A stretch of 64,000 nucleotides of DNA, taken from the NCBI GenBank assembly GCA_942493055.1, contig OW818680.1, positions 4,184,529-4,248,528 on the forward strand. Reading direction: 5' to 3'. Of the stretch, positions 2,178 to 52,167 are shown one piece after another. Numbering within the stretch: the first letter of the stretch is position 1; each line of letters begins with the position of its first letter. The DNA comes from an uncultured bacterium. Lineage in GTDB: Bacteria; Verrucomicrobiota; Kiritimatiellia; RFP12; UBA1067. Below the pieces are notes generated by a model that was not told where the DNA came from, searched no databases, and saw nothing but the letters and a program-made list of their open reading frames with translations. A program made the translations under genes and the position numbers.

Positions 2178-3293
2178 ATGAGTACTGTAGACTTGGGTTC
2201 GGTAGAGGCGTTCAAAATTCTGGTTGAAGATTTTCCAGACATGATTCATTCCGTTAATTCGGACGGGCAGATCATCTACGTCAATAAGATGGCCTCATGC
2301 CTGCTGGGGTATACGCGTGATGAGCTGATGGCCATGAACATTCGGCAGCTCTATCCGCAGGAGATTCTGGAGGCTGTCGAGGAAGGTTTTAAAGAGGTAA
2401 AGCTGTACGCTGGAGAGAAGCGTATTGAAAGTCAGTTTCTGTCGAAGGACGGAACCCGCATCCCTGTTGAACTGCGCACCCTGGCAATCCGTGATGAGAA
2501 AAAAGTATTTCTCCGGACCTTTACGGTCTCGCGCGATATGCGCAAACTAAAAGAGATGCAGGATCATTTGCTCCATGCGGGCCGCCTGGCAGCGATTGGC
2601 GAACTCGCGGCAGGGGTCGTCCATGACCTGAATAACCCATTGACCGCAATCGTCATGGTGGCTGAGATTATGAAGAAGAGCGCGGGGAACAAAGCGACCA
2701 CGCTGCAGGAGTTTCGTGATCAAGCCAGCCAATATGCGGACGTCATCACGGATTCTGCGGGTTCGATGGGGGCGATCACCACGCGCCTGCGCGATTTTGC
2801 ACGCGGTGTCAAGGAGCAGCATCAGCCCGTTGACCTCTATGAGCCGATCCATGACGCCCTTTTTATTATGGGCCATCGCTTCCGTCGCGCCAACATCAAT
2901 GTAATGCGTAAAATGTCGAAGAACCGTCACTGGGTCATGGGTGACTTCAATCAGATCGAGCAGATCTTCTTGAACCTTTTTGCCAATGCCTGTGATGCCA
3001 TGGATGCGTGCGAGACGCGCACATTGACCGTGGAGATTTCACCCGTGACCCGGGATGATGAGATGTTCTGGTGTTGTATGGTGAGAGATACGGGAGCCGG
3101 AATTCCGCAAGACCAGCAGGAGCATGTCTTTGAGTCGTTCTATACGACCAAACCGCGCGGCAAGGGCACAGGACTCGGCCTCAGCATTGTGGGGACCATC
3201 ATCAAGGAACACAATGGCTCTGTCTGGCTCGAATCCGAAGTCGGCAAAGGCACGACCTTCTTTATCCTGCTTCCGTTCAAGAAGGACGAATAA
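2178..3293 (+). CDS. PAS-domain sensor histidine kinase (cytoplasmic, no transmembrane segment)
   Basis: An RBS (gagga) precedes the ATG. There is an N-terminal PAS region (SVNSDGQIIYVNKMASCLLGYTRDEL), an H-box (AAIGELAAGVVHDLNNPLTAI), and an HATPase N, G1 and G2 set (DTGAGIP...GKGTGLGLSIVG...GKGTTF). No response regulator is adjacent. Confidence 0.9.
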   Translation: MSTVDLGSVEAFKILVEDFPDMIHSVNSDGQIIYVNKMASCLLGYTRDELMAMNIRQLYPQEILEAVEEGFKEVKLYAGEKRIESQFLSKDGTRIPVELRTLAIRDEKKVFLRTFTVSRDMRKLKEMQDHLLHAGRLAAIGELAAGVVHDLNNPLTAIVMVAEIMKKSAGNKATTLQEFRDQASQYADVITDSAGSMGAITTRLRDFARGVKEQHQPVDLYEPIHDALFIMGHRFRRANINVMRKMSKNRHWVMGDFNQIEQIFLNLFANACDAMDACETRTLTVEISPVTRDDEMFWCCMVRDTGAGIPQDQQEHVFESFYTTKPRGKGTGLGLSIVGTIIKEHNGSVWLESEVGKGTTFFILLPFKKDE

Positions 3294-3310
3294 ACGGCCT
3301 GTAGCTTCCC

Positions 3311-3586
3311 TGGAATGTTGGAATATCCACCTACGCCAAGGCTACGGCGGACAGGTGGGAATGTTGGAATGATGGGAAAAGATGAATAGCGGCTATGGGA
3401 GGGGCACGCGCCTGCGTGCCTGTGCCGCAGAGGCCTGCGCCGCTCCCGTTCGTTTGGGGAGGGCGGTCGGATCGACCGCCTGGACGGCGATCCTCCGTCC
3501 CTCCCTCTGATTCCCAACTTGCTGACACGTACTGACACTTCTAAGACTTATTGACACTTCTCCGTGTTCCCCCTCAGTTTATTCCC
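3311..3586. repeat. Composite intergenic repeat: (TGGAATR)n arm, GC-rich two-hairpin core at 3456-3506, tail ending in CAGTTTATTCC
   Basis: It starts right after the histidine kinase stop codon. The core gggagggcggtcggatcgaccgcctggacggcgatcctccgtccctccc is the reverse complement of the cores at 30574, 34119 and 45144. It is a member of a family of at least 8 copies in this window. Confidence 0.85.
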
Positions 3587-10179: not shown

Positions 10180-10595
10180 GCTTCTCAATCGCTTGCGGTT
10201 AATCAAGCCAATGAAATTGCTATGATTGCTTTTTATCCTGTAAAAATCAAGCGAAACTTCTGAATTGATCCGCGGTTGGAAAACTCTTTCCCCACGGAAC
10301 ACACGGAATGTCACGGAAAAAGAACCAAATCATTTCTTCTGTGTTCTTCCTGTGCGTATGACAAGGCTTACCTATAGCTTCAGTTTTTACCGCAAAGAAC
10401 ACAAAGATCTCAAAGATGAACTTCTGTATGCACTGTTTTGTAATTTGGGTTAACCTGTTTTCTCTGTGTTCTATGCGTTCTTCCTGACCGCCGTAGCCTT
10501 GGCGTAGGCTGGTTGTGGTTAAAAAATCTCAATCCGCGTCAATCCGCGCAATCCGTAGCTAAAAGTTATCCCTCCGTTTATTTGTGTGGTCTTTG
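10180..10595. repeat. Cluster of dispersed repeat modules (taaaaatcaagcgaaactt; tttaccgcaaagaacacaaagatctcaaagat; ccgccgtagccttggcgtagg)
   Basis: 10383-10590 is a near-duplicate of 48615-48775. 10232-10250 matches 13179-13197. 10487-10506 matches the reverse complement of 3335-3354. The small ORF 10265-10453 is repeat-encoded. Confidence 0.75.
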
Positions 10596-13118: not shown

Positions 13119-13169
13119 ACGTACATTCTCCTGCTGGCAACCTTGCCAGTCGTGCGCTTATCATTTCGC

Positions 13170-13456
13170 TTTATGCCGTAAAAATCAAGCGAAACTTGCC
13201 TATAACTTGTTTTGTTTTAACCGCAAAAACCGCAAAGAGATTGCGCGGCTATCTCATCCGCCTCACCCGTGGATACACGGACGGCGGAATGGATAGCCGC
13301 GCAGATGAATACTGATTCCATATCCATCAGTGAAAAACAAGTCTTTCGCTGATGGATATTTGATGCTATTCCGCGCAAATGTTCGCTCCGCCGTCCATGT
13401 ATTCATGGGCGAGGCGGGCGTGACATTTGCGCTCTTGTAGCGGTTTTTGCGGTACG
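13170..13456 (+). repeat. Structured dispersed repeat of about 250-280 bp, copy A (+ orientation)
   Basis: It is about 95% identical to the reverse complement of 16925-17165. Its modules are ccgcaaaaaccgcaaag, the inverted repeat gcgcggctatc...gatagccgcgc, the hairpin ccatcagtgaaaaacaagtctttcgctgatgg, and a conserved terminal module cgcaaatgttcgctccgccgtccatgtattcatgggcgaggcgggcgtgacatttgcg. Confidence 0.85.
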
Positions 13457-13490
13457 AATTAAGATGTGTTTACCCTGATGTGTAAAGCTA

Positions 13491-16400
13491 CTATTGGGGT
13501 TCGCAGAAGAAACGCACTTCGTCGAGGCCGATATAATTGTCGCGTCCAGGATACTTGGAGGTCACGTAGATCTGGAGGTAGCGCGTCTTGACGGGCTTGG
13601 AAAAGAAGAGGGATGAGCCTTTGTAGTCTTCCGTCCCTGTGGGTTGCGGGAAGGTCAGGGCATCCACAAGCGTGCCCCACAGCTTGCCCATTTCTGCATA
13701 CTCCGCTCCGTTGGGAGGCAGACGTGTGCCGGCATAGATCTGCGCACTCTGGATGTTGCGATGGCGCTCCGTGGTGGCGTGGTTGTAGCCCCAGTAATGC
13801 AGGCCGCGTACAGTAACCACTTCGCCCAGGTCAAAGGTGATCCAGGTGTTGGTCGCGTCATAGTTCAGCCAGACATCGTTCCCGTCGCTCCACATCGCCG
13901 TGGAGACCGTGGAGTTGGTGGTGACCTCTCCAGCAGGGGAACATCCCGAACCGTTGAGGGTGTTGCGCGCAGATGAACCTCTTTTTGAATAGGTGCTTTG
14001 CGCTGTTGCAGCGACAGGTGCTCGGAAGAGTTTGTTAATGACTTTCTTCACCTCGTTACTAAAGATTACTGGGGCAATAATATTGCCATTTTCATCGCGT
14101 GGCAGACGGCTCTCGACCGTCGGAAATTCGTCCTGACGATAGGCGCGGTTGATGAGCGGTGCGGTCCGCGTGCGAGGACGATAGGGGGACTGCGCATAGA
14201 CGTCCTGCACGGTTTCAGGATCGCGCGGCGGATAGTTGGATTGGCTAAATAGCGGATCTTCCGGATCAGGATCATCCATGGTGCGCACCTCCTGTTCGCC
14301 ACGGTAGGGACAGAGCGTATCGACCCAGAGGATCAGTTTGAACAGGCTGTTTTCATCGACCTTGACCTCGTGATGTTTGCCGCTGCTGGCGATGGCGATG
14401 AGGCGGCTGTTGGCCGAGAGTTTGGTCATGGCCGGCAAGGTACGATAATCTTCAGGCCTCCAAGGATGCGCCTCGGCCAGGATCGTATCCGCAATGCCGC
14501 CCTCGCATACGCCTGGGAAGGCGCCAATCTGGCGCTTCTTTCCCAGTGTCAATGTCAGATAGGGCTCCGGGAAGGTGCCCCCGTCTACGCTCCTGCGCAA
14601 GGTCAGGTCCAGCTTCTCTTTCCCTTTGCCGTTCCCTTGATGGCATTTGCCGCAGTAGGTGTCCAGAATAGGTTGGATGTCGCGTTCATATCCGAGCGAG
14701 TAACTTGCTCCCATCGGATAGGGTTTCAGTTTGGCCGGCGGCTTTTGCAAGGCGTCTCCCTTTGCGACCACGGAGCCTGCGCTGCCTGCCTCGTGACAGC
14801 CTGTACAGCCGCGATTCTCACCGGGCATCAGGTTCGTGAAGGAGCGCATCGTGTGGAGGGCGCGATGATTTTCATCCAGGACTTGGAAGTGAAGGGTCAC
14901 GCACGGCGGTGCCTCAAAGAAGACCGAGCCGTCCGCCTCGATCGGGACTGTGCCTAAGACGCGTTTGACCCCGTCGTTGTGCGTCACGGACATTACAGGC
15001 CCTGAGTGCATGTGCGCGGGATGACCTGGATGATCCACGTCCTGTAATTTTTTTCCGAGCGTGAAGGTGATATGATCAATCGTGAGCACGCGAAGGAATT
15101 TGCCCTTCTGACGCAGGTTGGCGGCCGCGCCTTGAAAGATGTCCGCACTGTAGAAGGTCCCGCTCTTGACAGGTGCCTTGTCCTTCTGCGCGCCTGCCCA
15201 TTGAATCTGGTCAGGGATGATCGGTGGCTTCTGCCGTGGAATCACGGGCATGGGGTAGAGCAGATTGTAGGTGCCGGAGTAGATAAGTTCGCGGTTGCCA
15301 TAGATGTCCATCAGGTAAATGCAGAAGGGCGTGCTGGCGGGATGCGCATTCTCTCCCCACACGGTACGATACCGCTGACGGGCAGAGACGAGGAAGAGTT
15401 CCTTGCTCAGCGGATAAGGCGACTTATAGCCGCCAAACTTTCCTTCAACATGATAAAGCGGCGTCTCCTGGCGTTCAGCTGGCCCGTTGCCCACCTCCGC
15501 CCACGGGGTGTCCCAGGTGACCTTGGTCAGTCCGTCCGGATAGTTGAGCCCTTTCGTGCGGTCAACAATACCGATGCTGGCGTTATAGACCAGATGGTGT
15601 CCGTGTCCTGCGAACATGACGCGATGGTCTCCGGGAATCGGATGCGCCTCCATCAGCATATCCGGCCAGTAACTCTGATTGCCCCAGTAGACGCTGGTGC
15701 CTGTGCCATCGGGATTGACGGTCCACAGACTTTGAATGCGCATCAGCTCCTTGTCCGTGTACTCCCAGCGCGTATAGAGGATGCGTCCGTCCTGCAGCAG
15801 GGTCGGTGTATATTCCGGTTCATTGCCGCCGCTCAGGATATAGATGTTCTTGCCGTCTGCATCGCAACGCGCGACCAAGGTGCTGGGGTGTCCCACGGTG
15901 CACCGCGCATAACTGTTGCCCCGGTTGGTCAGGAAGACAATCTTTCCGTCCGGCAGATAGATGGGGTCCATGTCGTCATAACTGCCTGACGTGAGCTGAC
16001 GCAGTCCTGTGCCATCCACATTGATTTCATACAGGTGGAAAACGCGTTCACCTTTGGGACGGAAACAGAAGAGAATATTCTTTGCGTCAAACGATACTTC
16101 CGGCCGCCAGAACCAGCCTGATCCTGTCTCGGGCGCGACACGTGTGAGCTTGCCTCCGGGATTCAGTCCGTCCAGCATCAGCAGGCGTCCGCAGTTCAGT
16201 TGCGCCTGCGGGTAGACACGGTGCATGGATTCGTGCGGGTAGCGTTCAGGCACATCGATGAAGAGCAGCTTTGAAAAGTTGATAACCGGATCTTTGAACA
16301 TGATCTGACGTTTGAGCGTCCGGATCTTCAGATAGAGGTCAGTCAGTTGGTTGGTCGTTGCAGTTGTTGAAAGCGCAGCGAGCTCTTTTTCCAAATTGTT

Positions 16401-16691
16401 CAGACGTTCAGTATCAGCCTTCAAGAGCTGCGGGTCCATGCGCGCGCTGTAACGCTCGATCATCTGGCGTGTCCAGGTGATCTCTTCCGTGGCGCGTGTC
16501 AATGGAGCTACGTTTTCCATGCGGAAGAGCCAGTCCGCGCGCAAGAGGTCATCAGCCTCCTTTTCGTTCAGCGTCCGCGTCACAGGCTCTTTCGGTCCGT
16601 TGTCCTGATAGGGGAACTCAGTTGTCTGCGCAAAGCAGAAACATCCGCTAGCGCACAGGATCAGCGCCATCAATGGTCCGTTCATCTTCAT
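13491..16691 (-). CDS. Large secreted protein: coiled-coil N-terminus, TolB/PD40-like beta-propeller repeats, PSCyt1-type cytochrome c motifs (2 CxxCH), C-terminal discoidin-like domain
   Basis: The start was chosen at MKMNGPLMALIL (nt 16691), which has a good RBS (aagggggaaatacc); the longer ORF runs to 16763. PD40-like repeats (DGKIVFLTNRGNSY, DGRILYTRWEY). Heme motifs CTGCH and YERDIQPILDTYCGKCHQGNGKGKEKLDL, the latter following the PSCyt1 pattern V.PIL...C..CH. It is paralogous to 30734-34033 and 61094-end. Confidence 0.8.
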   Translation of the reverse strand: MKMNGPLMALILCASGCFCFAQTTEFPYQDNGPKEPVTRTLNEKEADDLLRADWLFRMENVAPLTRATEEITWTRQMIERYSARMDPQLLKADTERLNNLEKELAALSTTATTNQLTDLYLKIRTLKRQIMFKDPVINFSKLLFIDVPERYPHESMHRVYPQAQLNCGRLLMLDGLNPGGKLTRVAPETGSGWFWRPEVSFDAKNILFCFRPKGERVFHLYEINVDGTGLRQLTSGSYDDMDPIYLPDGKIVFLTNRGNSYARCTVGHPSTLVARCDADGKNIYILSGGNEPEYTPTLLQDGRILYTRWEYTDKELMRIQSLWTVNPDGTGTSVYWGNQSYWPDMLMEAHPIPGDHRVMFAGHGHHLVYNASIGIVDRTKGLNYPDGLTKVTWDTPWAEVGNGPAERQETPLYHVEGKFGGYKSPYPLSKELFLVSARQRYRTVWGENAHPASTPFCIYLMDIYGNRELIYSGTYNLLYPMPVIPRQKPPIIPDQIQWAGAQKDKAPVKSGTFYSADIFQGAAANLRQKGKFLRVLTIDHITFTLGKKLQDVDHPGHPAHMHSGPVMSVTHNDGVKRVLGTVPIEADGSVFFEAPPCVTLHFQVLDENHRALHTMRSFTNLMPGENRGCTGCHEAGSAGSVVAKGDALQKPPAKLKPYPMGASYSLGYERDIQPILDTYCGKCHQGNGKGKEKLDLTLRRSVDGGTFPEPYLTLTLGKKRQIGAFPGVCEGGIADTILAEAHPWRPEDYRTLPAMTKLSANSRLIAIASSGKHHEVKVDENSLFKLILWVDTLCPYRGEQEVRTMDDPDPEDPLFSQSNYPPRDPETVQDVYAQSPYRPRTRTAPLINRAYRQDEFPTVESRLPRDENGNIIAPVIFSNEVKKVINKLFRAPVAATAQSTYSKRGSSARNTLNGSGCSPAGEVTTNSTVSTAMWSDGNDVWLNYDATNTWITFDLGEVVTVRGLHYWGYNHATTERHRNIQSAQIYAGTRLPPNGAEYAEMGKLWGTLVDALTFPQPTGTEDYKGSSLFFSKPVKTRYLQIYVTSKYPGRDNYIGLDEVRFFCEPQ

Positions 16692-16924
16692 GGTATTTCC
16701 CCCTTCATCGAGACAGTGATCATCCATTAAACTGGCAACTTCCCGTAACATATTGAAGACCATTTAACCACACATGTGAAAGAAGATGCAATGCCGATTT
16801 TATTCAGTGTTGAAGATTGGTATTTTCGCACGCGCTTCAAGCAGATTGCTTGGGCATTGGATCCACTGGGATAATTGAATTTAAAACTGTCCATAGGTGA
16901 TAAGCTAAGAAGGAAATACTTTTT

Positions 16925-17165
16925 TCGCAAAAGCCGCGAAGAAGAGCGCAAATGTCACGCCCGCCTCACCCATGAATACATGGACGGCGGAGCGAACATT
17001 TGCGCGGGGCAATCTCAAATATCCATCAGCGAAAAACTTGTTTTTCGCTGATGGATATGAAATCAGTATTCATCTGCGCGGCTATCCATTCCGCCGTCCG
17101 TGTATCCACGGGTGAGGCGGATGAGATAGCCGCGCAATCTTTTTGCGGTTTTTGCGGTAAAATGA
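16925..17165 (-). repeat. Structured dispersed repeat of about 250 bp, copy B (inverted relative to copy A)
   Basis: Its reverse complement aligns to 13205-13456 with only a few mismatches. With copy A it forms inverted repeats bracketing the 13491-16691 gene. The conserved module end faces the gene start. Confidence 0.85.
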
Positions 17166-17214
17166 TTTTAGAGCGAAGTTTTGCAAATTGCCATCTTCTG
17201 GGGCGTGGCAATGT

Positions 17215-18342
17215 TTATTTCAGCTCTGCCGTCGCACCTGGCTTGAGCACGGAGCGCAGGGCTTTGAGAAATTGGCCGTCGGGATCGCCTTGGGTGGGTG
17301 CGATATATCCGCCTTCGCCAAATTCGTTCCAGGCATAGATCAGCACGATCCGCTCGGCAGTGGTCTGCTCGGGATGCTTGTCCATCCACTCGATCGCCTT
17401 GCGCATGAACTCCGCCAGTTGTTCCGGCTTGCGGTCCGGATAGAACCAGCCGGGTTTCTGATCCAGGCCGTCCGGGCCTTCCCACGGACGCTTGTCCCAG
17501 CCTGCTGTGATGATCGGCATGTAGGGCTGCTCGGGCGTGCCGCGCCACTGGGCCACGTTTCCGGCGATCAACTCTGTGTACGTGTGTTGCTCAGAGCCTG
17601 CCGTGTATCCCATGTTGATGTTGTAATGCGTGCGGTGGGTGTAGAGTTCCGGCGATCCGCCTGAGCATCCGGCAAGGGCCAGACCCGACAGGCCGGCTTT
17701 CTTTGCGCTCTCCTGCATGGCGGCAAAACCGTCCTTGTCGCTCCCCTTGGCATTGAAGATGACGATCAGCGGCTTCCCTCCGACGGTGACGTGCTGTTTG
17801 TGCTTGAGATAGGGCATCCAGAACTCGCCGGCCTGCTTCCAGTTCTCCGTGCCTGTGATCTCATGCCCCTGATGGTTGGCGACCAAAAGAGCGAATTTCA
17901 TGCGGTGGTTGTTCTTTGCCTTGAGGAAGAGGTCGAGGCAGGTGTGCTTGGAGTCCTCCATGATCCGCTGGGTGTTGATCGGTTTCTTGTCGTCGCTCCA
18001 GTACCAGCAGAAGAGGAAGAAGTCGATGCCATTGTCCGCTGCAAGGTCGATCTGCTTCTCCATGATTTCCAGTGAATCATCGCGCCAGCCCCAGATCGGT
18101 TCGCGCTCGCTGAACTCCTGGAGCATCCGCTTGGTCAAGTGGCTCGGCGCATTTTTGGCCCATGGCTGCTCGGGGTCATTGGCAAAGCGGTTCTTCCCAG
18201 CCCAGCCATCGAAATAATAGGCGCCCACCATGGCTTTCGCCTTCGGTTCTTCCCTGCTGGCATCTGCCGCACTCACCGCAAGCGACAGCAGTGATATCCC
18301 GATGACAGCGACTGTTTTAATCTCATTTCCAATGTTTCTCAT
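17215..18342 (-). CDS. Secreted glycoside-hydrolase-like TIM-barrel protein (GH71/GH99/GHL-type; family uncertain)
   Basis: Signal peptide present. Motifs AYYFDGW, IDFFLFCWYW and AWNEFGEGGYIAP (a possible catalytic NEF/E) resemble GH71/GH99-like or GH-like families. Not assignable by eye. Confidence 0.55.
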   Translation of the reverse strand: MRNIGNEIKTVAVIGISLLSLAVSAADASREEPKAKAMVGAYYFDGWAGKNRFANDPEQPWAKNAPSHLTKRMLQEFSEREPIWGWRDDSLEIMEKQIDLAADNGIDFFLFCWYWSDDKKPINTQRIMEDSKHTCLDLFLKAKNNHRMKFALLVANHQGHEITGTENWKQAGEFWMPYLKHKQHVTVGGKPLIVIFNAKGSDKDGFAAMQESAKKAGLSGLALAGCSGGSPELYTHRTHYNINMGYTAGSEQHTYTELIAGNVAQWRGTPEQPYMPIITAGWDKRPWEGPDGLDQKPGWFYPDRKPEQLAEFMRKAIEWMDKHPEQTTAERIVLIYAWNEFGEGGYIAPTQGDPDGQFLKALRSVLKPGATAELK

Positions 18343-18419
18343 GTTGTGTTCCCTTCATTCTAAAACGAATAGTCGTATTTAACCACAAAGAGCACATAGA
18401 GCGCAAAGATAAAACAATG

Positions 18420-18660
18420 CCACGGGGAGTATAGGACGCATCTACGATTTGTTTCAACCCATGGGTGTATAGGTGCCTCGCCTGCACATTCTCCTGGGCG
18501 TATAGGCGTCCCCGCCTGTACACTTTAAGCCAAAACCGTTGCTGGAGGCGTCCGGCAGCGGCCGGACCGCCAGTGCACAGGCGGGGACGCCTATGCGCCC
18601 AGGGGGCCTGCTGCTGCATAGGCGAGCCTATACGCCCAGCCTCCCCGCCCAGTCAACAGG
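18420..18660. repeat. Intergenic block with repeated CCTATACGCC-type motifs and a roughly 28-bp inverted repeat
   Basis: gggcgtataggcgtccccgcctgtacac (about 18497-18524) pairs with gtgcacaggcggggacgcctatgcgccc (about 18571-18598). gtatagg/cctatac units occur at least 6 times. A related motif recurs at 51990-52075. Confidence 0.7.
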
Positions 18661-18740
18661 TCAATGAATCGCAGATGCACCTGCTTAACCCTTCAGCTGG
18701 ATGCTTGACTTATGCATCAGTATATGTCATATTGTGATGC

Positions 18741-18935
18741 ATGAGAACAACGCTCAATATAGATGACAGGCTGCTCAAGGACGCATCCCGGCTTACCGGA
18801 GTACGGGAGAAGACCGCTCTGGTCCGAATCGGACTGGAGACGCTCATTGCCCGCCAGAGCGCGCAACGTTTGGCGGTGCTCGGTGGAACAGAACCGCAGG
18901 CTCGACAGGTCCCCCGGCGGAGACCGCCACTGTGA
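18741..18935 (+). CDS. vapB: Type II antitoxin VapB (ribbon-helix-helix/COG4423-like)
   Basis: A 64-aa ORF: MRTTLNIDDRLLKDASRLTGVREKTALVRIGLETLI matches the VapB antitoxin consensus. Its stop overlaps the vapC start by 4 bp (gtga). An operator-like inverted repeat, tgcatca-N16-tgatgca, spans the start at 18713-18742. Confidence 0.85.
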   Translation: MRTTLNIDDRLLKDASRLTGVREKTALVRIGLETLIARQSAQRLAVLGGTEPQARQVPRRRPPL

Positions 18936-19309
18936 TCCTCGTTGATTCTTCAATCTGGATGGATCACTTTCGCAAGCAGAACTCGCATTTAATTTCGCTG
19001 CTGGAGAGGGATGAAGCGTGTATCCACCCGTTCGTGATCGGTGAAGTGGCCTGTGGCAACCTGAAGAACAGAAAAGAGATCATAGCCCTCCTTCATGCGC
19101 TTCCAGATGTTCAGAAAGCTGACGATGACGAAATCCTTTTCTTCATTGAGCGACATCAGCTGAATGGACGCGGAGTCGGTTTGATCGATATTCACCTGCT
19201 TGCCGCATGCCTCATGGCGAGATGCCGCCTCTGGACAGGCGATAAGCGGTTGCAAGAGGTTGCTCGGGAGATGCATATTGAACATAGCACCCTATCTTCT
19301 GCTGGCTAG
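18932..19309 (+). CDS. vapC: PIN-domain toxin VapC
   Basis: A 125-aa ORF with the PIN signature MILVDSSIW...D and conserved acidic residues (EVA, LIDIHLLA). It is translationally coupled to vapB. Confidence 0.85.
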   Translation: MILVDSSIWMDHFRKQNSHLISLLERDEACIHPFVIGEVACGNLKNRKEIIALLHALPDVQKADDDEILFFIERHQLNGRGVGLIDIHLLAACLMARCRLWTGDKRLQEVAREMHIEHSTLSSAG

Positions 19310-26323: not shown

Positions 26324-26325
26324 GA

Positions 26326-26567
26326 GTGGAGTGGAATACTGGAATAGTGGAATGTTGGAATGTTGGAATGCTGGAATGTCGGAATACTGGAATCTTGGAA
26401 TAATGGGAGAGAAAACCACTGGTCATTGGGAGCGGCGCAGGCCTCTGCGCTACAGGGAGGGACGGCGGATCGCCGTCTAAGCGGGCGATCCGCCCGCTCT
26501 CCCAGAACCAGCATCCAGTTGTGTTCCCCAACATTCCAAAATTCCCATATTCCCATATTCCATTGAA
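26326..26567. repeat. Composite intergenic repeat (TGGAATR arm, two-hairpin GC core at 26455-26503, inverted ATTCC arm)
   Basis: It starts 3 bp after the stop of 25391-26323. In the core gggagggacggcggatcgccgtctaagcgggcgatccgcccgctctccc, the second hairpin carries compensatory substitutions relative to other copies (agcgggcg/cgcccgct versus ggcggtcg/cgaccgcc). Confidence 0.85.
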
Positions 26568-26587
26568 GTTTACGAAGGAGTTGAAAG

Positions 26588-28765
26588 ATGAAGCACGAAC
26601 GGTTTGTAGTAGCGTTTGGATTGATCGCCTGCTCGTTACAGGCGGCAGTGAAGGTGCCGGCGATTTTCGGCGAGAACATGGTGTTGCAGCAGCAGCAACC
26701 CGTGCCGGTCTGGGGATGGGCCGATGCGAATGAGCAGGTCACAGTCGAATTTGCAGGACAGAAGAAGTCAGCGACCGCAGGTGCCAATGGCAAGTGGATG
26801 TTGAAGCTCGATGCCTTGAAAGCCTCTGCAACGCCAGCTGTCTTTAAGGTCAGCGCCTCGAATGTCATTACGCTGAACAATGTCGTGGTGGGTGAAGTCT
26901 GGTTTGCCTCCGGACAGTCCAACATGGAGTGGCCTGTGCAGGCGAGTAATAATTTTGACCAGGAGAAGGCCAGTGCGAATTGGCCGCTGATCCGCCACTT
27001 CAAGGCGCCCAAGAATTTTAAGCCTTCGCCACAGGACGACATCAGCGCCAAGTGGGAGGTGACCACGCCGGAGTCGATCGGAGGACAGTCCGCGCTGGCC
27101 TACTTCTTCGGGCGCCGTCTTCATGAAGCATTGAAGGTCCCTGTCGGCATGATCAACAGCTCATGGGGCGGAACCCGCATTGAGCCCTGGACCCCTGCGT
27201 GCGGTTTTGAAGGCCTGTCGGCGCTCGAAGGCATTAAGAGCCGTGTCGATATGGCCACGCCCTCCACGCCTGTTCACAAGAAGGCCTTGAACGAGTATAT
27301 CGCTGCCTTGAACGTATGGATGGACGATGCCAAGAAGCGCGAGGCAGCGGGTCAGGCGATCGAAACACCCGCCCCGGAGTTCCCGCAAAACTTGATCTTC
27401 CCGACGGGGAACGGTAAACATCAGGAGCCGACCGTGCTCTATAACGGCATGATGGCCGGCCTGGTTCCCTTTGCGATCAAGGGCGCGATCTGGTATCAAG
27501 GCTGCTCGAACAATGGCGAAGGCATGCTTTATCTTGAGAAGACTAAGGCCTTGGTCAATGGCTGGCGCGCAGTCTGGGGCCAGGGCGACTTCCCATATTA
27601 TCTCGTGCAACTCGCGCCCTACAATTATGGAGCTGGCGCTGAGGCGCGCCTGCCGGGTATCTGGGAGGCGCAGGCAGCAGTGCCTGCCGCGATTCCGAAT
27701 ACGGGCTATACCGTCATCAATGACATCGGCAACCCCAAAGACATCCATCCGCGTAACAAGCAGGACGTGGGCCTGCGCATGGCCAACCAGGCGCTCAATC
27801 GCACATACGGCATGAAGGAGATTGCATGGTCCGGCCCTGTCTACAAGTCGTTTGCCATCGAAGGCGCAAAGATGCGCATTGCTTTTGATTGCGCCGACGG
27901 ACTCAAGACCCGCGATGGCAAAGCCCCTGACTGGTTTGAGATGGCTGGACAGGATGGCCAGTATAAAACCGCGGATGCCGTGATTGAAGGCTCTGCCGTC
28001 GTTCTTTCGAATGCCTCCATCGATAAGCCCCTGGCTGCGCGCTTTGCCTGGAACCAAATCGCCGAGCCCAACCTGGTCAATGGTCTTGGCCTGCCGACCA
28101 GCGCCTTCCGTTGCGGTGAGATGCCGAAGCTCGATGGCGCGCTCGCGATGACCGAGTTGAACGGTTTTCGCAAGGTCTATGAGCTCGACCTTCCTGCGAA
28201 TCCCAAGTTTGCACAGCAGGCGCCTGCCTACTCCACCGACAACAGCGCATGTGCGGGAGAGTTTTCAAAGGTCGCGTATGTATTGCAACTGGAAGACAAC
28301 AGCGGCAGCATTCGCTATGTGGCCACGTTCATGGATGCTTTTACAAAGGATGTGAAGAAGTTAACCATCCCTTATGCCGGGAGCAACATCAAGCACCAGA
28401 TGAAGGTCAATAATCTGACGGTGCGCTCCAATGTGGAAACGCTTCCGACACTGACCGACAGCGATGGCGGCAACATCGAATTTTGGGGCGCGAACTATGG
28501 TCCCGGAACCGTATTGCGCTTGGACGGCGCCAGCCAGCAAAAATATGATTTCGATGATCAGCCTGCTGCGGATGGCACGTATGGCTCTATGCAGGTCCAT
28601 GCCTGGAAAAACAAGATCGTACTCTTCGCCTTCAATAATTTCAATGGCGGCGGGACGTGCGACATCGGCATCGGCAACAACACCAAGGGCGAACAACAGG
28701 ATTACACCTTCATGAGCAATGGCGGCGACTATAAGACGCGGCGCTTGACGGTATTGGTAAAGTAA
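26588..28765 (+). CDS. Sialate O-acetylesterase-like SGNH hydrolase (carbohydrate acetylesterase) with extra C-terminal domains
   Basis: Signal peptide present. The block VVGEVWFASGQSNMEWPV is characteristic of the sialic acid-specific 9-O-acetylesterase (DUF303) family, and the SGNH-like GDFPYYLVQL block follows. 725 aa. Confidence 0.85.
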   Translation: MKHERFVVAFGLIACSLQAAVKVPAIFGENMVLQQQQPVPVWGWADANEQVTVEFAGQKKSATAGANGKWMLKLDALKASATPAVFKVSASNVITLNNVVVGEVWFASGQSNMEWPVQASNNFDQEKASANWPLIRHFKAPKNFKPSPQDDISAKWEVTTPESIGGQSALAYFFGRRLHEALKVPVGMINSSWGGTRIEPWTPACGFEGLSALEGIKSRVDMATPSTPVHKKALNEYIAALNVWMDDAKKREAAGQAIETPAPEFPQNLIFPTGNGKHQEPTVLYNGMMAGLVPFAIKGAIWYQGCSNNGEGMLYLEKTKALVNGWRAVWGQGDFPYYLVQLAPYNYGAGAEARLPGIWEAQAAVPAAIPNTGYTVINDIGNPKDIHPRNKQDVGLRMANQALNRTYGMKEIAWSGPVYKSFAIEGAKMRIAFDCADGLKTRDGKAPDWFEMAGQDGQYKTADAVIEGSAVVLSNASIDKPLAARFAWNQIAEPNLVNGLGLPTSAFRCGEMPKLDGALAMTELNGFRKVYELDLPANPKFAQQAPAYSTDNSACAGEFSKVAYVLQLEDNSGSIRYVATFMDAFTKDVKKLTIPYAGSNIKHQMKVNNLTVRSNVETLPTLTDSDGGNIEFWGANYGPGTVLRLDGASQQKYDFDDQPAADGTYGSMQVHAWKNKIVLFAFNNFNGGGTCDIGIGNNTKGEQQDYTFMSNGGDYKTRRLTVLVK

Positions 28766-28770
28766 GAGAT

Positions 28771-28895
28771 TGGAATGTTGGAATATTGGAATACTGGAGT
28801 GTGGGAACTAGAAGCTTTCCGGGGTACTGCTAACTGCTACTGCCAACTGCTACTCTCCCCATTATTCCACCATTCCATTGTTCCATCATTCCACT
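28771..28895. repeat. Composite intergenic repeat, coreless variant (TGGAATR arm, short spacer, inverted ATTCC arm)
   Basis: gattggaatgttggaatattggaatactgg...ccattattccaccattccattgttccatcattccactg. The spacer tgctaactgctactgccaactgctact replaces the GC core. Confidence 0.75.
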
Positions 28896-28915
28896 GAAAT
28901 TAAAGGAGCACAGAC

Positions 28916-30451: not shown

Positions 30452-30481
30452 TTCGTTTAGGTGTGTGTCTGTAACTTCAAC

Positions 30482-30688
30482 TGGAATGTTGGAATACGGG
30501 AATGTTGGAATCTCCTCCTACGCGGATACGGCTCCGGCGGACAGGATGGGGGGGGAGACGGGATACCGGCTCTGGGAGGGACGGCGGATCGCCGTCCGGC
30601 GGTCGACCCGACCGCCCTCCCAAGATAGTCTTCTTCCAATATTCCAAGATTCCATTATTCCTTTCCAAGATACCTCTCCGTTTATTCC
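30482..30688. repeat. Composite intergenic repeat (TGGAATR arm, GC core at 30574-30622, ATTCC arm, CGTTTATTCC tail)
   Basis: It starts about 30 bp after the kinase stop. The core gggagggacggcggatcgccgtccggcggtcgacccgaccgccctccc has an outer 7-bp stem gggaggg/ccctccc enclosing two hairpins. Confidence 0.85.
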
Positions 30689-30733: not shown

Positions 30734-33700
30734 ATGAGCGTGAGAAAAGCAAGAAGAAATATGTTGGGCGTCTTAATCGGGATTGTGCTTTCATTGAGAT
30801 GCGCTTCAGCATGTGCGGATATCCAGCTCTCTCCCTGGCAGGCGATCGGCCCCTTTAAGAATGCCCAGTTTGGGAGCCTTGTGCCCAGTTCGAAAGAGGT
30901 CTATGCGCCTGAAGCGGACGTGCTGGCAAAAGGGGCGGCGCTGGCGGACCTCTCGAAAAGCTACACCGGCGTCAATGTGGATGCAGAGGGGAAGCCCTTT
31001 CCGATGTACGATGCCTTCACCGTTGCGAAATGGGTGCAGCATCCGGAGTGGGCAGACGGGTATCGCAACCTGTTGCCGCGCGGTCCTGCGCCGTCACGCC
31101 ATGAGACAACCTATCTTTACCGCACGATCACTGCATCCGTAGCGACAAACGTAACGCTGCGCGTCTATGCGGAGGATGCCATACAGGCATGGATCAATGG
31201 CGCACCCAACGGACGTGCGATGCGCGTCTACAGTCCCGAGCATCGGCCGACGGCTCTGGTGGCATCCGTGCCCTTGCAGAAGGGGGCGAATCGTTTGCTC
31301 ATCAAAATCACCTCCCTGTTTGCTAAGCATGGCTTTGCCTTTGCCATCGATGGCGTCACAGTTTCCAGCACGCTCGCGCCAGAGGGCTGGCAGGATGTGT
31401 GCAGGAACGAGAAACAGCCTTATCTACTGGATGCGCAAGGCGTGCCGAAGTCAGGGGTGTTCAGGATGAAGGCCCTGCCGGAGCCGATGTTCGACCCCGC
31501 GCAGTTGACCCTGGAGGAGGCGCGCAAATCCATCCCGCTCACCGAAGGGGGCGCTGCGTATGAGCGCTCCATCCGGGCAGTCAATCCGCTAGACCGGCAG
31601 ACGATTCTCGCGCATTGGCAGGGACAGCTCAAGCGGACGGGTCCTATTCTCTTCATGACCTATCCAACCTATTCAATCAATGCCATCGCCCCCCATTCAT
31701 CTCAAGGGGCGTGCCCGGCCTCCATCTGTCTCTTTGATCCGGCCGACCCGAAGGAGTCCCCGAAAGTGATCTTTGCTGAAGAGGAACTCAAGCTCTTCGA
31801 CATGAATCTCTCCTACGACGGCAAGACGATCTTCTTTTCCGCCAAACGAAAAGAGGACGGCCCCTTTTGGCAGATCTATGAGATCGGCACGGACGGGAAG
31901 AATCTGAAGAAAATCATCGGGGGTCAGTGCCAGAACATCAGTCCTGCCCTCCTGCCGGACGGACGGCTCATCTTCATCTCTGACCGCGCCACAACGTATG
32001 TGCAGTGCCAGGCCCAGACCTCGCCCCTTCTCTATTCATGTGCGCGCGACGGTTCAGACATCCGGAAGCTCTCAGCCAATATCGACAGCGACCATACGCC
32101 CCAAGTCATGAACGACGGCAAGATCCTCTTCACGCGCTGGGACTATGGCATTGATAAGAATGTGGACAACCGCCAGGCGCTCTGGACCATGAATCCGGAC
32201 GGGACCGCCATGAAGCTCTTCTTTGGCAACACCATTGAAGATCCGAGCGGTTTCTGGGCTGCGCGGCCTGTGCCCGGACGGCCTGAAGTGCTTTGCGTGC
32301 TGGGTCCGCACCACAACAACCATACGGGCATGGCTGGGCTTGTCTGGAATCTGAAAGGACCAGAAGCGCCGCGCGGCGAGGGCTTCCGCTTCCTGACCCT
32401 CCAGCGTCCCTACGTGGGCGATACAGGACTCCCCTGGCTCTGGCAGGATCTCTATCCCGTCAATGAGAAGCTCTTTCTCGCGAGCTACGGAGGCGACGGC
32501 GGACTCAAAAACCGCCTCTACCTGCTGGATGACCGCGGCAACCGGTTCTGCTTCTATGAGTCTGCGACCAACCTGGGCTGTTTCAATCCCATGCCCCTTG
32601 CGCCCCGTCCTGTACCGCCAGAGGTTGCGCAGGGCTGCACGCCGGTCCCCTTTGTGTTTGAGGACCCTGAACAGCTGAACCAGGCGCCCCGCACCAATGA
32701 CGTCGCTACCTTGATGGTATATGATGTCTATCTGGGCGTCGAACCGCATATCAAGCGCGGCGAAGTCAAATGGATTCAGGTGATGGAGCAGGTGTTGAAG
32801 TCACGGCGCATGGATGGCGGCGAAGCGTGGGGCCACACGCCCATCATCGGACGCGGCACTGTCCATGTGCGCCGCGAGATCGGAAGGGTCCCGGTGAACG
32901 CGGACGGTTCCGCCCATTTCACGGTGCCTGCCCTGCGCAACATCTCCATGAACCTGCTCAACGCGGAAGGCCAGGTCATCATGCGCATGGGCTCTGACAT
33001 GCACACCATGCCCGGCGAGAAGCAGAACTGCATCGGCTGCCACGAGAATCGCAAAGGGGGCGTGCCGCCCTCTGTGACCAAGCAGCCGTTGGCGAGCAGC
33101 CAGCCGCCGGTCGCGCCCCAACAGGCCAACTGGGGGACTCAGGGCGTCATCGACTATCAGCGCGTCGTGCAGCCTGTCTGGAACCGCTATTGCGTCAGCT
33201 GCCACAGCGGGCCGAGGCCCGTAGCGCACCTCGATTTAAGCGGCGACCGTACGCGCTTCTTCTGCGTCTCCTACGACAACCTTGTGGAGCGCGCCCTGGT
33301 CGAATGGCATCAGCCTTTCGCCAACGACTACGACGACAACTTCCCGAAGACCGTCGGAGCCGTTGTCAGCAAGATCCAGACGAAAGTGCTCGACTCCAAA
33401 CATTGCGGGAAGACCATTCCTCCGGACATGCGCTACCGGGTCTGGTGCTGGATCGATGCCAACGTGCCCTATTACGGGACGTACGACTACACCAAGGTGA
33501 AAGACGAGAAGGGGCGCGAGATCGTCCGCGGCGCTGGCGCACGCGATGCGTGGCAGGCAGACGGCATCTGGTCGCAAGCGAACTGGTCCAAGCACTATCC
33601 CAGCACGCCGAACCTCATTTACGACGGCATCAAGCCTGTCTTTGACAGACGCTGCATGAGCTGCCATGAGACGCCGGTGTACAACGGCGGCACCTGGGGC

Positions 33701-34033
33701 TTTGGCGGCGGCTCCATGGACGCCCCCTTCCCGGTCAGCAGCAAGCTCTGGCAGGATCGCGGACTCTGTGCGCACATGGCCATACCGCGTTACGGCTCGA
33801 GCCTCATCTACGGACCGGAACTGCGCATCAACCTCACGAATCCTCAAAACAGCTCCATGCTGCAGGCCCCGCTCTCAAAGGAGGCAGGCGGCTGGGGCGT
33901 GTGCAAAAAACCCGATGGCAAGCCGCTCTTTGAGTCCACGGCTGATCCGGACTACCAGACCATGTTGAAAGCCATCAAGGCCGCCTCCGACCGCCTCCGC
34001 GCCGCGCCCCGTAAAGACATGGCGGGGGAGTAG
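30734..34033 (+). CDS. Large secreted protein: N-terminal beta-sandwich (PA14/lectin-like), TolB/PD40 beta-propeller repeats, three PSCyt1-type CxxCH heme motifs
   Basis: Signal peptide present. PD40-like repeats (DGKTIFFSAKRKEDGPFWQIYEIGTDGKN, PDGRLIFISDR, DGKILFTRWDYG). Heme motifs CIGCH, YQRVVQPVWNRYCVSCHSGPRPVAHLDLSG and CMSCHETP. It is paralogous to 13491-16691 and 61094-end. Confidence 0.8.
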   Translation: MSVRKARRNMLGVLIGIVLSLRCASACADIQLSPWQAIGPFKNAQFGSLVPSSKEVYAPEADVLAKGAALADLSKSYTGVNVDAEGKPFPMYDAFTVAKWVQHPEWADGYRNLLPRGPAPSRHETTYLYRTITASVATNVTLRVYAEDAIQAWINGAPNGRAMRVYSPEHRPTALVASVPLQKGANRLLIKITSLFAKHGFAFAIDGVTVSSTLAPEGWQDVCRNEKQPYLLDAQGVPKSGVFRMKALPEPMFDPAQLTLEEARKSIPLTEGGAAYERSIRAVNPLDRQTILAHWQGQLKRTGPILFMTYPTYSINAIAPHSSQGACPASICLFDPADPKESPKVIFAEEELKLFDMNLSYDGKTIFFSAKRKEDGPFWQIYEIGTDGKNLKKIIGGQCQNISPALLPDGRLIFISDRATTYVQCQAQTSPLLYSCARDGSDIRKLSANIDSDHTPQVMNDGKILFTRWDYGIDKNVDNRQALWTMNPDGTAMKLFFGNTIEDPSGFWAARPVPGRPEVLCVLGPHHNNHTGMAGLVWNLKGPEAPRGEGFRFLTLQRPYVGDTGLPWLWQDLYPVNEKLFLASYGGDGGLKNRLYLLDDRGNRFCFYESATNLGCFNPMPLAPRPVPPEVAQGCTPVPFVFEDPEQLNQAPRTNDVATLMVYDVYLGVEPHIKRGEVKWIQVMEQVLKSRRMDGGEAWGHTPIIGRGTVHVRREIGRVPVNADGSAHFTVPALRNISMNLLNAEGQVIMRMGSDMHTMPGEKQNCIGCHENRKGGVPPSVTKQPLASSQPPVAPQQANWGTQGVIDYQRVVQPVWNRYCVSCHSGPRPVAHLDLSGDRTRFFCVSYDNLVERALVEWHQPFANDYDDNFPKTVGAVVSKIQTKVLDSKHCGKTIPPDMRYRVWCWIDANVPYYGTYDYTKVKDEKGREIVRGAGARDAWQADGIWSQANWSKHYPSTPNLIYDGIKPVFDRRCMSCHETPVYNGGTWGFGGGSMDAPFPVSSKLWQDRGLCAHMAIPRYGSSLIYGPELRINLTNPQNSSMLQAPLSKEAGGWGVCKKPDGKPLFESTADPDYQTMLKAIKAASDRLRAAPRKDMAGE

Positions 34034-34069
34034 CGTTGTTTGTGTCTGTGGCCCTGTTTATAACTTCAT

Positions 34070-34235
34070 TGGAATGTTGGAATACAGGAATGTTGGGGGA
34101 AGACGGGATACCGTCTCTGGGAGGGACGGCGGATCGCCGTCCGACGGTCGATCCGACCGCCCTCCCGATCTCTGTCAACCTTCTTCAGCTAACACATTAA
34201 CACACTTCTCCAAGATACTCCCCTCAGTTTATTCC
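34070..34235. repeat. Composite intergenic repeat (TGGAATR arm, GC core at 34119-34166, tail ending in CAGTTTATTCC)
   Basis: It starts about 35 bp after the stop of 30734-34033. The core gggagggacggcggatcgccgtccgacggtcgatccgaccgccctccc and the tail acacttctcc...ccctcagtttattcc match the 3311-3586 copy. Confidence 0.85.
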
Positions 34236-40530: not shown

Positions 40531-41104
40531 TATGAAAAAACAAGTGAACAAGACACGAGTGGCAGAGCTGACGCGTCAGCTCCTGATTGAGCTGGGCGAA
40601 GATCCTGACCGCGAAGGGTTGAAGGGGACGCCGAAGCGCGTGGCGGAGTCGCTCGCCTTTCTGACCGGCGGCTATCGGCAGACGACGAAGCGGGTCGTCA
40701 ACAATGCGGTCTTCCAGTCGCATACGAACCACATGATCATCGTTCGCGACATCGAAATCTACAGCTTGTGCGAACACCACATGCTGCCCTTCTACGGCCG
40801 CTGCCATGTGGGCTACATCGCCAAGGACAAGGTGATCGGCGTGAGCAAGATCGCACGCATCGTGGATTGTTTCGCGCGCCGGCTCCAGATTCAGGAGCGC
40901 CTGACGGAGCAGATCGCTGACTCGATCATGGAGGAGGTGGATGCCGAGGGCGTCGGCGTGGTCATGGAGTGCCGCCACCTCTGCATGATGATGCGCGGCG
41001 TGGAGAAGCAGAACTCGGTCATGACCACCTCGGCCGTGCTCGGCTCCTTCCGGACCGAAGGCGCCACGCGCCAGGAGTTCTTGTCATTGATTAGGGCGCA
41101 TTAA
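40531..41104 (+). CDS. folE: GTP cyclohydrolase I
   Basis: An RBS (ggagaag) precedes the ATG at 40531. The FolE active-site blocks [11 protein letters not shown] and [13 protein letters not shown] are present. It starts 2 bp after the channel gene stop. Confidence 0.9.
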
Positions 41105-45060: not shown

Positions 45061-45086
45061 TGTGAACCTCTTTCGTTATAACGCCA

Positions 45087-47143: not shown

Positions 47144-47169
47144 GCTTCTGTTCCTTTCAAAACTTTATT

Positions 47170-47330: not shown

Positions 47331-47332
47331 TC

Positions 47333-49766: not shown

Positions 49767-49782
49767 TGGTTTCGTGTTTTAG

Positions 49783-50010
49783 CGCAAAAACCGCAATAAG
49801 AAGGGCGGTTATCTCGTCTGCCTCACGCTGAATACAGCACGGCAGAACGGATAACCGCCCAGATAAAACGAATTTCATTTTCATCAGCAAAAAACAAGTT
49901 TTTTGCTGATGAAAATTGAGTTGATTCCGCGCAAATGTTCGCTCCGCCGTCCATGTATTCATGGGTGAGGCGGGCGTGACATTTGCGCTATCCTTTGCGG
50001 CTTTTGCGAT
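49783..50010 (+). repeat. Structured dispersed repeat of about 230 bp, copy C (diverged first half, conserved terminal module)
   Basis: Its terminal module ttccgcgcaaatgttcgctccgccgtccatgtattcatgggtgaggcgggcgtgacatttgcgct is about 97% identical to copy A. In its inverted repeat gcggttatc...gataaccgc and hairpin tcatcagcaaaaaacaagttttttgctgatga, pairing is preserved by compensatory changes relative to copies A and B. It ends 97 bp upstream of the Gfo/Idh/MocA gene. Confidence 0.8.
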
Positions 50011-50106
50011 AGAATCTTAAAAAACCGTGAAGAACCCAAAAAAGTTTTGTTTTTTCAAGGCATTATGATATGTTAATTAAAACTAACCAAGGGAGGAGTT
50101 TCTCAA

Positions 50107-51501: not shown

Positions 51502-51842
51502 ATGTACGATGTCGATAATTCTACCGCAAAAACCGCGAAAGATTGCACGGCTATAGGGGCCCGGCGGATCCGCACGGGTTCCATTAATCCGCCTCACCCG
51601 TGATCCGCCAAGGCTACGGCGGCCAGGCGTCGGCGTTCCCAGAGGATAAGGTGGCGGAGCCGTCCCGGCTCCGGCGGGCAAGATGCCCGCGCTCCTTTGA
51701 GGGCAGCAATAGAAAGGAGCGTGGGCGCCTGCCTCGCCGTAGCCTCAGCGTAGGCGGGTCCCGCCCGCATGAAAGAGGAGGGGCATTCTTGGCGACAGGG
51801 GGACAGACAAGAATGGCGCTAAGATAAGCGACGGCTCGCCAA

Positions 51843-52075: not shown

Positions 52076-52167
52076 GTAGCGCGGGATTTTTCAGTTGCGC
52101 TTTGTTTTCATCGATAGTAAAATCATCCCAATCTGCAACAGTTCAAATGATAAGGAAGGATTTAGGC

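Follow-up and report, generated by a model that had tools for sequence, protein, structure and literature searches.

Structured repeats in the analysed window

The DNA analysed here, referred to as the window, is a stretch of 64,000 nt from contig OW818680.1 (assembly GCA_942493055.1) of an uncultured bacterium of the Kiritimatiellia, and the subject of this report is a structured intergenic repeat of about 240 nt, present in the window as three complete gene-less copies (A, B and C) and one partial copy (D). Copies A and B lie in inverted orientation on the two sides of a large gene, which is a neighbour and not part of the element. Since this gene is on the minus strand, A is located 3' and B 5' of it. 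The coordinates of all features are shown in Table 1.

The three-copy repeat noted in a preliminary description of the sequence was real. In a repeat search of the window, the arms 13216-13436 (A) and 16942-17162 (B) were 95% complementary over 221 nt at a distance of 3505 nt, and 16920-17023 (B) matched 49911-50014 (C) over 104 nt at 88%, while the direct repeat families D4 and D8 corresponded to a hairpin module (M3, 91% between A and C) and to the central hairpin, respectively. Eight matches to the 18-nt terminal motif were found in the window against 0.04 expected, and five to the 30-nt inner hairpin against an expectation of 0, indicating that the copies are not due to chance. With a covariance model of the hairpin module, exactly six modules were detected in the 64 kb, with scores of 82-94 bits.

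Alignment of A, reverse-complemented B and C displayed an element of 235-243 nt with terminal inverted repeats (TIRs) around three hairpins, M1, M2 and M3. The TIR has 14 nt (ACCGCAAAAACCGC / GCGGTTTTTGCGGT), or 18-19 nt counting the A/T extension TTTT(A)/(T)AAAA, and terminates A, B, C and 43 full copies on either side, the two ends being 89% identical. Two ACCGCAAA units make up the inner repeat of A, B and C. M1 and M3 are reverse complements of each other in their inner parts and differ in their outer stems.

The start of A, previously placed at 13170, was found at 13216, and 13134-13197 is host sequence that is conserved in element-free relatives. This promoter-like sequence belongs to the next minus-strand gene and recurs at 10221-10259 upstream of another gene (family D11). 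The motif common to these two minus-strand upstream regions, TTGATTTTTAC...N...ATGATAAG (minus strand; 13159-13197 and 10221-10259), is conserved in the metagenome contigs L080 and L081. The right boundary of C was set by host sequence conserved in the relative L138, which carries yet another repeat at this site and in which the host sequence resumes exactly at window position 50016. In copy D, which is orthologous to a full copy (L060:6016-6277), M1 is broken by a nested insertion of about 30 nt and is followed by unrelated repeats. This GC-rich palindromic insert (GGGGCCCGGCGGATCCGCACGGGTTCC, window 51553-51582) is nested at one position inside M modules and was also observed in L004, L040, L060, L065, L074 and L077, suggesting a smaller element that targets the hairpin.

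Table 1. Positions of the repeat copies, their parts and associated features (window coordinates unless a locus is named)
Feature	Position	Strand	Support or remark
Copy A, complete, gene-less	13216..13456	+	nhmmer E=1e-86
A, TIR-L	13215-13233	+	ttttaACCGCAAAAACCGC
A, M1	13243-13302	+	
A, M2	13320-13359	+	
A, M3	13373-13432	+	
A, TIR-R	13440-13454	+	
Copy B, complete, gene-less, inverted relative to A	16920..17162	-	E=3e-89; 95% to A
B, TIR-R	16926-16937		plus-strand coordinates
B, M3	16946-17005		plus-strand coordinates
B, M2	17019-17058		plus-strand coordinates
B, M1	17076-17135		plus-strand coordinates
B, TIR-L	17145-17162		plus-strand coordinates
Copy C, complete, gene-less, sister subtype	49778..50015	+	E=1e-78; 93% identical to L017
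C, M1	49803-49860	+	diverged, stems compensated
C, M2	49877-49916	+	
C, M3	49929-49988	+	
Copy D, partial: TIR-L and start of M1	51519..51603	+	E=3e-4
Degenerate outer ISAs1-type terminal repeat beside A (CAGGGTAAACACATCTT)	13461..13477	-	3 mismatches to CAGGGCGAACGCATCT
Enclosed 1090-aa gene (HZS_alpha middle domain, PD40, F5/8 type C), neighbour	13491..16763	-	not part of the element
Host promoter-like sequence of the next minus-strand gene, outside the element	13134..13197	-	conserved in L080, L081 (without A)
TGGAATNN octamer-array family	26324-26570, 28755-28901, 30474-30662, 34062-34177, 45080-45246, 47161-47331, 3300-3506		
Inverted repeats at distant GxxExxY gene, L121			42 nt
Inverted repeats at distant GxxExxY gene, L131			19 nt, 100% complementary
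Inverted repeats at distant GxxExxY gene, L022			32 nt
Inverted repeats at distant GxxExxY gene, L126			41 nt and 27 nt, local hairpin either side

Folding and covariation of the hairpin modules

The M1/M3 alignment contained 91 distinct modules, for which RNAalifold gave the same three-tier hairpin as had been derived by eye. Pairing was observed in 98.6% of the cells, double changes were present in 15 of the 23 pairs (299 cells), and the alignment scored 0.439 for covariation, versus 0.168 after shuffling and at most 0.09 in slid registers. The compensatory changes quoted in the preliminary description (gcggctatc/gatagccgc versus gcggttatc/gataaccgc, and those in the central hairpin) are real, and it was right in stating that pairing is preserved by such changes. 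The outer stem was free to vary, with 11/11 pairs compensated, and the inner hairpin was nearly invariant (16 invariant columns), a combination which suggests that the inner hairpin is recognised by a protein and held by the outer stem as a generic clamp.

The RNA fold of copy A had an energy of -140.5 kcal/mol (z=-13.8), the z value of the DNA fold was -11.6, and the single-stranded element, RNA or DNA and on either strand, folded as a closed three-arm junction. No covariation between the two TIRs was found in the closing stem: at the variable TIR position the combinations at the two ends were (A,A) 24, (G,A) 11, (A,G) 6 and (G,G) 1, with about 2 (G,G) expected. This suggests that the TIRs act like two separate putative binding sites and not like an RNA helix.

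Wobble pairs in module orientation were 140 G.T versus 7 A.C, and the covariance-model scores given above were obtained on the module's own strand, versus 15-36 bits on the other strand. As M1 and M3 are inverted and each has its own wobble strand, no single strand is optimal for both halves. Searches of Rfam gave zero hits at the gathering level and only chance-level ones at E<1. Intrastrand template switching in replicating palindromes can yield paired changes without selection, so that covariation alone is no proof of selection. To judge from the alignment, the module structure is selected, or at least maintained.

Copies in other genomes and at orthologous sites

One genome per species was scanned with the conserved inner-hairpin pattern as bait, the counts being lower bounds, and the pattern was carried by at least 79 loci in at least 18 metagenome-assembled genomes (MAGs), read as 8-kb pieces. 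The source MAGs were mostly from lakes and were labelled Lentisphaeraceae, Kiritimatiellia, 'Akkermansia' (probably a mislabel) or unclassified; loci of CAMBQV01 and CAMBQN01 (L002, L004, L007 and others) come from copy-rich lake MAGs titled 'Akkermansia muciniphila', a label that is probably wrong, to judge from gene content and habitat. A profile of A, B and C run over the listed loci gave at least 93 distinct copies, 40 of them full length. When 25 full copies were aligned with their flanks, TIRs, M1 and M3 were conserved and the centre differed by subfamily, being the M2 hairpin, an unrelated sequence of 60-90 nt, or nothing in a two-module form of about 187 nt. The similarity of these copies to those in the window ended sharply at the inner TIRs. 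Adjacent modules, 40-190 nt apart, were in one relative orientation (-,+) in 56/57 pairs.

According to a simple ORF caller, the copies were located between tandem (33), convergent (12) and divergent (11) genes, and full copies in tandem contexts were 10 sense and 9 antisense to transcription (n=19). Within the window, A is antisense to its flanking genes, and B and C are sense. The preliminary description was right that B and C precede their downstream genes in the same orientation, but the distances of 234 and 97 nt are to be replaced by 156 nt for B and 91 nt for C (ATG at 50107). No matches to the element were found in viral contigs, and nothing describing it was found in the literature. 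The element is a new, apparently undescribed family belonging to an already known general kind, the non-autonomous structured repeats derived from a coding parent.

L080 and L081 carry the enclosed gene (93% identity at the amino-acid level, about 90% in nucleotides), and zero copies of the element were found on either contig. At the A site, L080 has 12 nt replacing window 13198-13487, a difference that goes beyond the element, and in L081 the site holds an unrelated repeat of 178 nt. L081 also lacks window 16819-18697, a segment of 1.9 kb containing B, a WbsX-like gene and a long hairpin; this hairpin (18493-18603), with 32-nt arms of 94% complementarity around a loop of 47 nt, is situated at a margin of the missing segment. 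The gene order of both contigs is collinear with the window, with the same gene orientation relative to the flanks, indicating that no inversion has occurred.

Similar replacements were observed at the other sites. In L060, which is about 80% identical to window 45.8-51.4 kb and in synteny with it, the C site is occupied by TGGAAT arrays around a GC-rich palindrome; a TGGAAT-array repeat was likewise found there in L136/L137 (89% amino-acid identity). Altogether, the C and D sites in six orthologous contigs contained other repeats or other genes. A flank-versus-flank BLAST of all loci gave one orthologous pair only, L005/L040, in which both sites are filled. Copies come and go within short times, with no consistent relation to the genes beside them.

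A GxxExxY nuclease cassette with the same ends

At L059:2715-3318, an ORF of 136 codons was found between M1 and M3. Its product belongs to the GxxExxY proteins (TIGR04256, E=9e-31) and to the PDDEXK_3 family (PF13366, E=8e-31), and a protein search gave 259 homologues at E<=1e-10. Four close homologues (76-88% identity), each in a genomic context of its own, were read together with their surroundings: TIR-L and M1 were located 5' and M3 and TIR-R 3' of the nuclease gene in P0002, P0011 and P0012, and only the M3 and TIR-R side was present in P0010 (78%). Including L059, both ends accompany the gene in 4/5 close-family contexts and one end in the fifth. The cassette is about 606 nt long and consists of TIR-L, M1, a leader of 16-20 nt with a ribosome-binding site, the 136-aa gene, M3 starting from the stop codon, and TIR-R.

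The cassette ends of L059, L108, L113 and L117 were 82-95% identical to the ends of A, B and C, the lowest value being that of the M1 end against L059. Between A and L113, TIR-L with M1 was 95% identical over 82 nt and M3 with TIR-R 94% over 84 nt. A copy of 291 nt, L053:903-1201, keeps codons 1-24 (MHPLYEKANDLTPIVIKCAIEVYN) and the last ~30 nt of the gene; because both gene extremities are retained, it represents an internal-deletion intermediate. The 3' junction of L108, TGA-TTCC-GCGCAAATGT, is still legible in copy C. In A, B and C, the hairpin M2 of 40 nt stands where the cassettes have the gene.

The gene downstream of ORF-bearing cassettes was on the same strand in 7/8 contexts, a co-orientation that would fit expression by read-through transcription (n small). 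At four distant GxxExxY genes (40-56% identity), no M modules were found; the flanks are unrelated and contain inverted repeats of their own (Table 1), several of which are arrays of ~8-nt units. The other repeat families of the window are similar in style.

Across 72 homologues, G27, G29 and E32 of the GxxExxY motif, E67 and the triad D72...E82-x-K84 were invariant, and the nuclease looks active from these residues. A PDB sequence search with it gave no match. In its AlphaFold2 model (pLDDT 95.9), the best solved structural neighbours were Cas4 SSO0001 (E=1e-3, TM ~0.5), a lambda-exonuclease-like enzyme and restriction-endonuclease-like proteins, so that the predicted fold would be closest to the Cas4/RecB type. 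The GxxExxY family comprises 24,825 representative clusters at E<=1e-3 and 8,244 at E<=1e-10, and its function is listed as 'Unknown' in a superfamily survey (PMC3424549). Nothing on the genomic setting of these proteins was found in the literature. Some members (P0251, P0252, P0259-P0261 and others) have ~270-310 aa with two tandem copies of the domain.

An ISAs1-type shell in one subtype

In the two-module subtype of ~187 nt, observed in a few MAGs, the core is enclosed by outer repeats, CAGGGCGAACGCATCT...AGATGCGTTCGCCCTG, and the CAGGG shell is limited to this subtype. Such ends were present in L007, L008, L015, L025, L026, L043, L044, L056, L067 and others, and direct duplications of 10 bp flanked 11 of 14 CAGGG-ended copies, 8 of them perfectly. 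ISAs1-family elements have repeats of 14-22 bp starting with CAGGG and 10-bp duplications (PMC11946415), and ISArsp11 is an example of these features (PMC6305408). By its ends and duplications, the 187-nt subtype is a classical transposon derivative. In the window, no CAGGG end was found at B or C, and only one degenerate end lies beside A, without a partner on the other side of A; L044, L015 and L007 have the outer end at an identical position relative to the inner TIR. No 10-bp target duplication was found at the window copies.

Interpretation and alternative explanations

Copies A, B, C and D are probably non-autonomous, gene-less derivatives of a GxxExxY mini-cassette, similar to miniature inverted-repeat transposable elements (MITEs). 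As relics of a selfish element, they would not be switches for the neighbouring genes. The TIRs and the sequence-conserved inner hairpins would serve the cassette as cis-acting sites for a protein acting in trans. This protein would most plausibly be the nuclease of the cassette itself, provided by an ORF-bearing copy at another place in the genome, and in some lineages an ISAs1-type transposase may act instead on the added CAGGG ends. In the ORF-bearing form, the hairpins would bracket the coding region in read-through transcripts and may protect or release a small mRNA. Two independent insertions would by coincidence have placed A and B in inverted orientation on the two sides of the large gene, any effect on the neighbours being incidental.

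Several observations weigh against this derivation. Neither a GxxExxY gene nor a remnant of one was found in the 64-kb window or in A, B and C (tblastn with 120 family members), so that the window copies can only be derivatives of the cassette and not cassettes. The close family was sampled in just five ORF-bearing contexts, and the GxxExxY ORF could in principle be cargo. No target-site duplication was found at the inner TIRs of A, B, C or 40 other full copies, and none of the orthologous sites is a clean empty site, since the relatives carry something else or differ beyond the element. The inner-hairpin bait biases the counts towards the subtype of the window, gene context was called with a crude ORF caller, and the literature contains no experiment or paper that ties GxxExxY proteins to mobility.

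The proposal of the preliminary description that the repeats are cis-regulatory or 5'-UTR RNA elements (riboswitch-like leaders) of the downstream secreted-enzyme genes is very improbable. The structure is highly stable with covarying stems, and B and C are sense and close upstream of start codons, as such elements would be. However, orthologues of both genes have leaders without the element, A is opposite in orientation to its flanking genes, and dozens of copies per MAG lie in all intergenic contexts beside unrelated genes, some between convergent ones, with sense and antisense orientations almost equal in number. Moreover, no Rfam family matches, and the central hairpin is swapped for unrelated sequences or a gene in other copies. 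Least credible of all is the suggestion from the same source that the A/B pair mediates a programmed inversion or excision of the enclosed 3.2-kb gene. Homologous recombination between two inverted arms of this length, identity and spacing is physically possible, but the Pfam scan, which covered the larger window ORFs, gave neither a recombinase nor an invertase, and L080 and L081, without both copies, have the gene in the same orientation relative to the flanks. Inversion would also part the gene from its conserved leader (kept to 16800-16818), with no evident purpose, and a second, unrelated inverted pair brackets other window genes (1157-1239 / 3504-3586), so that bracketing is expected by chance in a repeat-dense genome. 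What the preliminary description had itself named as speaking against its reading was largely found: when the positional-bias check was run, the copies were random in orientation and position relative to genes. The plain MITE that it named as the other outcome applies in part, as target duplications in one subfamily and an ORF-bearing master exist, but the master encodes a PD-(D/E)XK nuclease and not a known transposase.

A retention of the copies by the host as domesticated RNA structures, which like REP or ERIC sequences would stabilise, terminate or insulate transcripts, is unlikely, although it has more in its favour than the preceding two. Hairpins are kept by compensatory change across many species, those of the cassette stand exactly at the 5' and 3' coding edges with a mostly co-oriented downstream gene, and the closed multi-hairpin junction folds on either strand. 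Against this, orthologous sites are not conserved between ~90%-identical genomes, orientation is random, the wobble-compatible strand is opposite in the two halves so that no one transcript folds both optimally, the closing stem is without covariation, and template switching could make the paired changes without selection. An ordinary ISAs1 MITE of the DDE-transposase type, with the GxxExxY gene as a passenger captured in a few copies, has a small probability. The duplications around copies with CAGGGCGAACGCATCT ends are typical of ISAs1, as are the CAGGG repeats (PMC11946415, PMC6305408), and A carries one degenerate end of this kind. However, CAGGG ends are missing from B, from C and from the ORF-bearing cassettes, only the inner unit is common to copies across genomes, with sharp boundaries at the inner repeats, and the shell is confined to the ~187-nt subtype. 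The four distant GxxExxY genes have their own cognate inverted repeats, which argues for co-evolution of gene and ends and not for capture. For the window copies, an origin as ISAs1 MITEs was rejected, just one decayed end being present. An origin in a system of repetitive extragenic palindromic (REP) sequences and REP-associated tyrosine transposases (RAYTs) was also rejected: the genes between distant module pairs (L018, L065) are ordinary (Rrf2, NAD-synthase-like, FGGY kinase), and no Y1 transposase family was matched in any protein scanned.

Comparison with known repeat families

The element resembles MITEs in being short, non-coding and multi-copy with TIRs, in being present or absent among close relatives, and in sharing both ends with a longer ORF-bearing form to which the deletion intermediate L053 is linked. 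It differs in that its parent encodes a 136-aa PD-(D/E)XK (GxxExxY) nuclease and not a known transposase, in that the inner repeats have no target-site duplication, and in the large covarying sub-terminal hairpins, which DDE-type MITEs do not need. With REP sequences, their doublets (REPINs) and bacterial interspersed mosaic elements (BIMEs), it shares imperfect-palindrome doublets in a fixed inverted arrangement, variable linkers (mosaic) and compensated stems, and with REPIN-RAYT systems also a small enzyme gene flanked by modules and many gene-less intergenic copies. The flanked gene, however, encodes a PD-(D/E)XK nuclease and not a Y1 HUH transposase, the modules have ~60 nt with a three-tier stem, and an extra TIR of 14 nt (18-19 nt extended) encloses the doublet. 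As the outer stems of M1 and M3 are mutually non-complementary, each module folds on itself, and no single long REPIN hairpin is formed.

Enterobacterial repetitive intergenic consensus (ERIC/IRU, intergenic repeat unit), BOX and Correia elements are likewise palindromic or modular intergenic repeats, often transcribed, in either orientation, with a structure kept across species and with variants formed by internal insertion or module exchange. They are without a known ORF form with the same ends, their sequences are unrelated, and they belong to enterobacteria, pneumococci and Neisseria, whereas the present element is from Planctomycetes-Verrucomicrobia-Chlamydiae (PVC) bacteria. One ISAs1-like trait, CAGGG-initiated repeats of ~16-20 nt with 10-bp duplications, occurs in one subtype; these ends form an outer shell on a conserved core in some genomes only, and no ISAs1 transposase was seen in the window. 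Intervening sequences of 23S rRNA that bear an ORF carry a small gene inside a long stem cleaved by RNase III. They resemble the cassette in having a gene of ~130 aa and a closing stem with hairpins, and in being inserted co-oriented in transcribed DNA, but the element described here is located between protein-coding genes and not in rRNA.

More tentatively, and with a greater chance of being wrong than right, GxxExxY proteins in general could be the enzymes of unrecognised bacterial mini mobile elements, with lineage-specific TIRs that often consist of ~8-nt arrays plus sub-terminal hairpins, spawning gene-less repeats. In that case, such cassettes would probably also have spawned the octamer-array and hairpin elements that fill the window, and the relationship may parallel those of RAYT with REPIN or of transposase with MITE, by analogy and with another catalytic fold.

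If A to D are cassette derivatives, the result for the window is deflationary: the repeats would not be regulators of the flanking genes, and the inverted pair would be coincidental. Structured intergenic repeats of lake PVC bacteria (MAGs of the Kiritimatiellia/Lentisphaerae type) would be traceable to a tiny GxxExxY cassette, the large GxxExxY family would gain a testable role in acting on its own flanking repeats and hairpins, and the repeats would explain assembly fragmentation at such sites in these organisms. Strong covariation in multi-copy palindromes should not be taken as evidence for a regulatory RNA.

Other repeats and genes in the window

A second multi-copy intergenic family is built of arrays of the octamer TGGAATNN (3-7 units), a GC-rich palindrome (GGGAGGGACGGCGGATCGCCGTCC...) and then inverted TTCCA arrays (Table 1). 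Repeats of this type occupy the site orthologous to C in L060 and L136/L137, and TGGAAT arrays adjoin a copy of the A/B/C element in L005/L040. Another repeat, ~90 nt long and bounded by TTTTTACCGCAAAGAACACAAAGA...TCTCTGTGTTCTTTGTGGTAAAAAG, was found at 10384-10475 and 48616-48707 (87% identical). It has TTTTACCGCAAAG at its termini in common with the inner repeat of A, B and C, and these termini also resemble the repeats of the GxxExxY gene in L022 (TTTCACCACAGAGACAC...). The repeat may represent a further gene-less cassette of this class.

The inverted pair 1157-1239 / 3504-3586 (83 nt, 92% complementary, AAGTGTCA-type arrays) encloses a DUF3465 gene (1465-1965) and a PAS histidine kinase gene (2178-3293), and may be a split or cargo-carrying element. 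At 41104-41332, inverted AGTTCTAAA arrays (31 nt, 87% complementary) surround a GC-rich segment of ~170 nt, forming another array-hairpin-array element.

No transposase gene was found in the window, and a Pfam scan of its larger ORFs gave no transposase or recombinase domain. Genes of defence or mobile type are located within 52051-57993, 36447-38288, 34392-35579 and 18932-19309, with products comprising a 1,980-aa DUF4011/AAA_11-12/MTES_1575 helicase-nuclease, a T5orf172/MUG113 protein, an AAA_14/DUF4143 ATPase and a PIN-domain protein. A gene at 30734-34033 and the enclosed gene (13491-16763) encode two paralogues of ~1,100 aa with a hydrazine-synthase-alpha middle domain (PF18582), the second of which also has a weak cytochrome c match.

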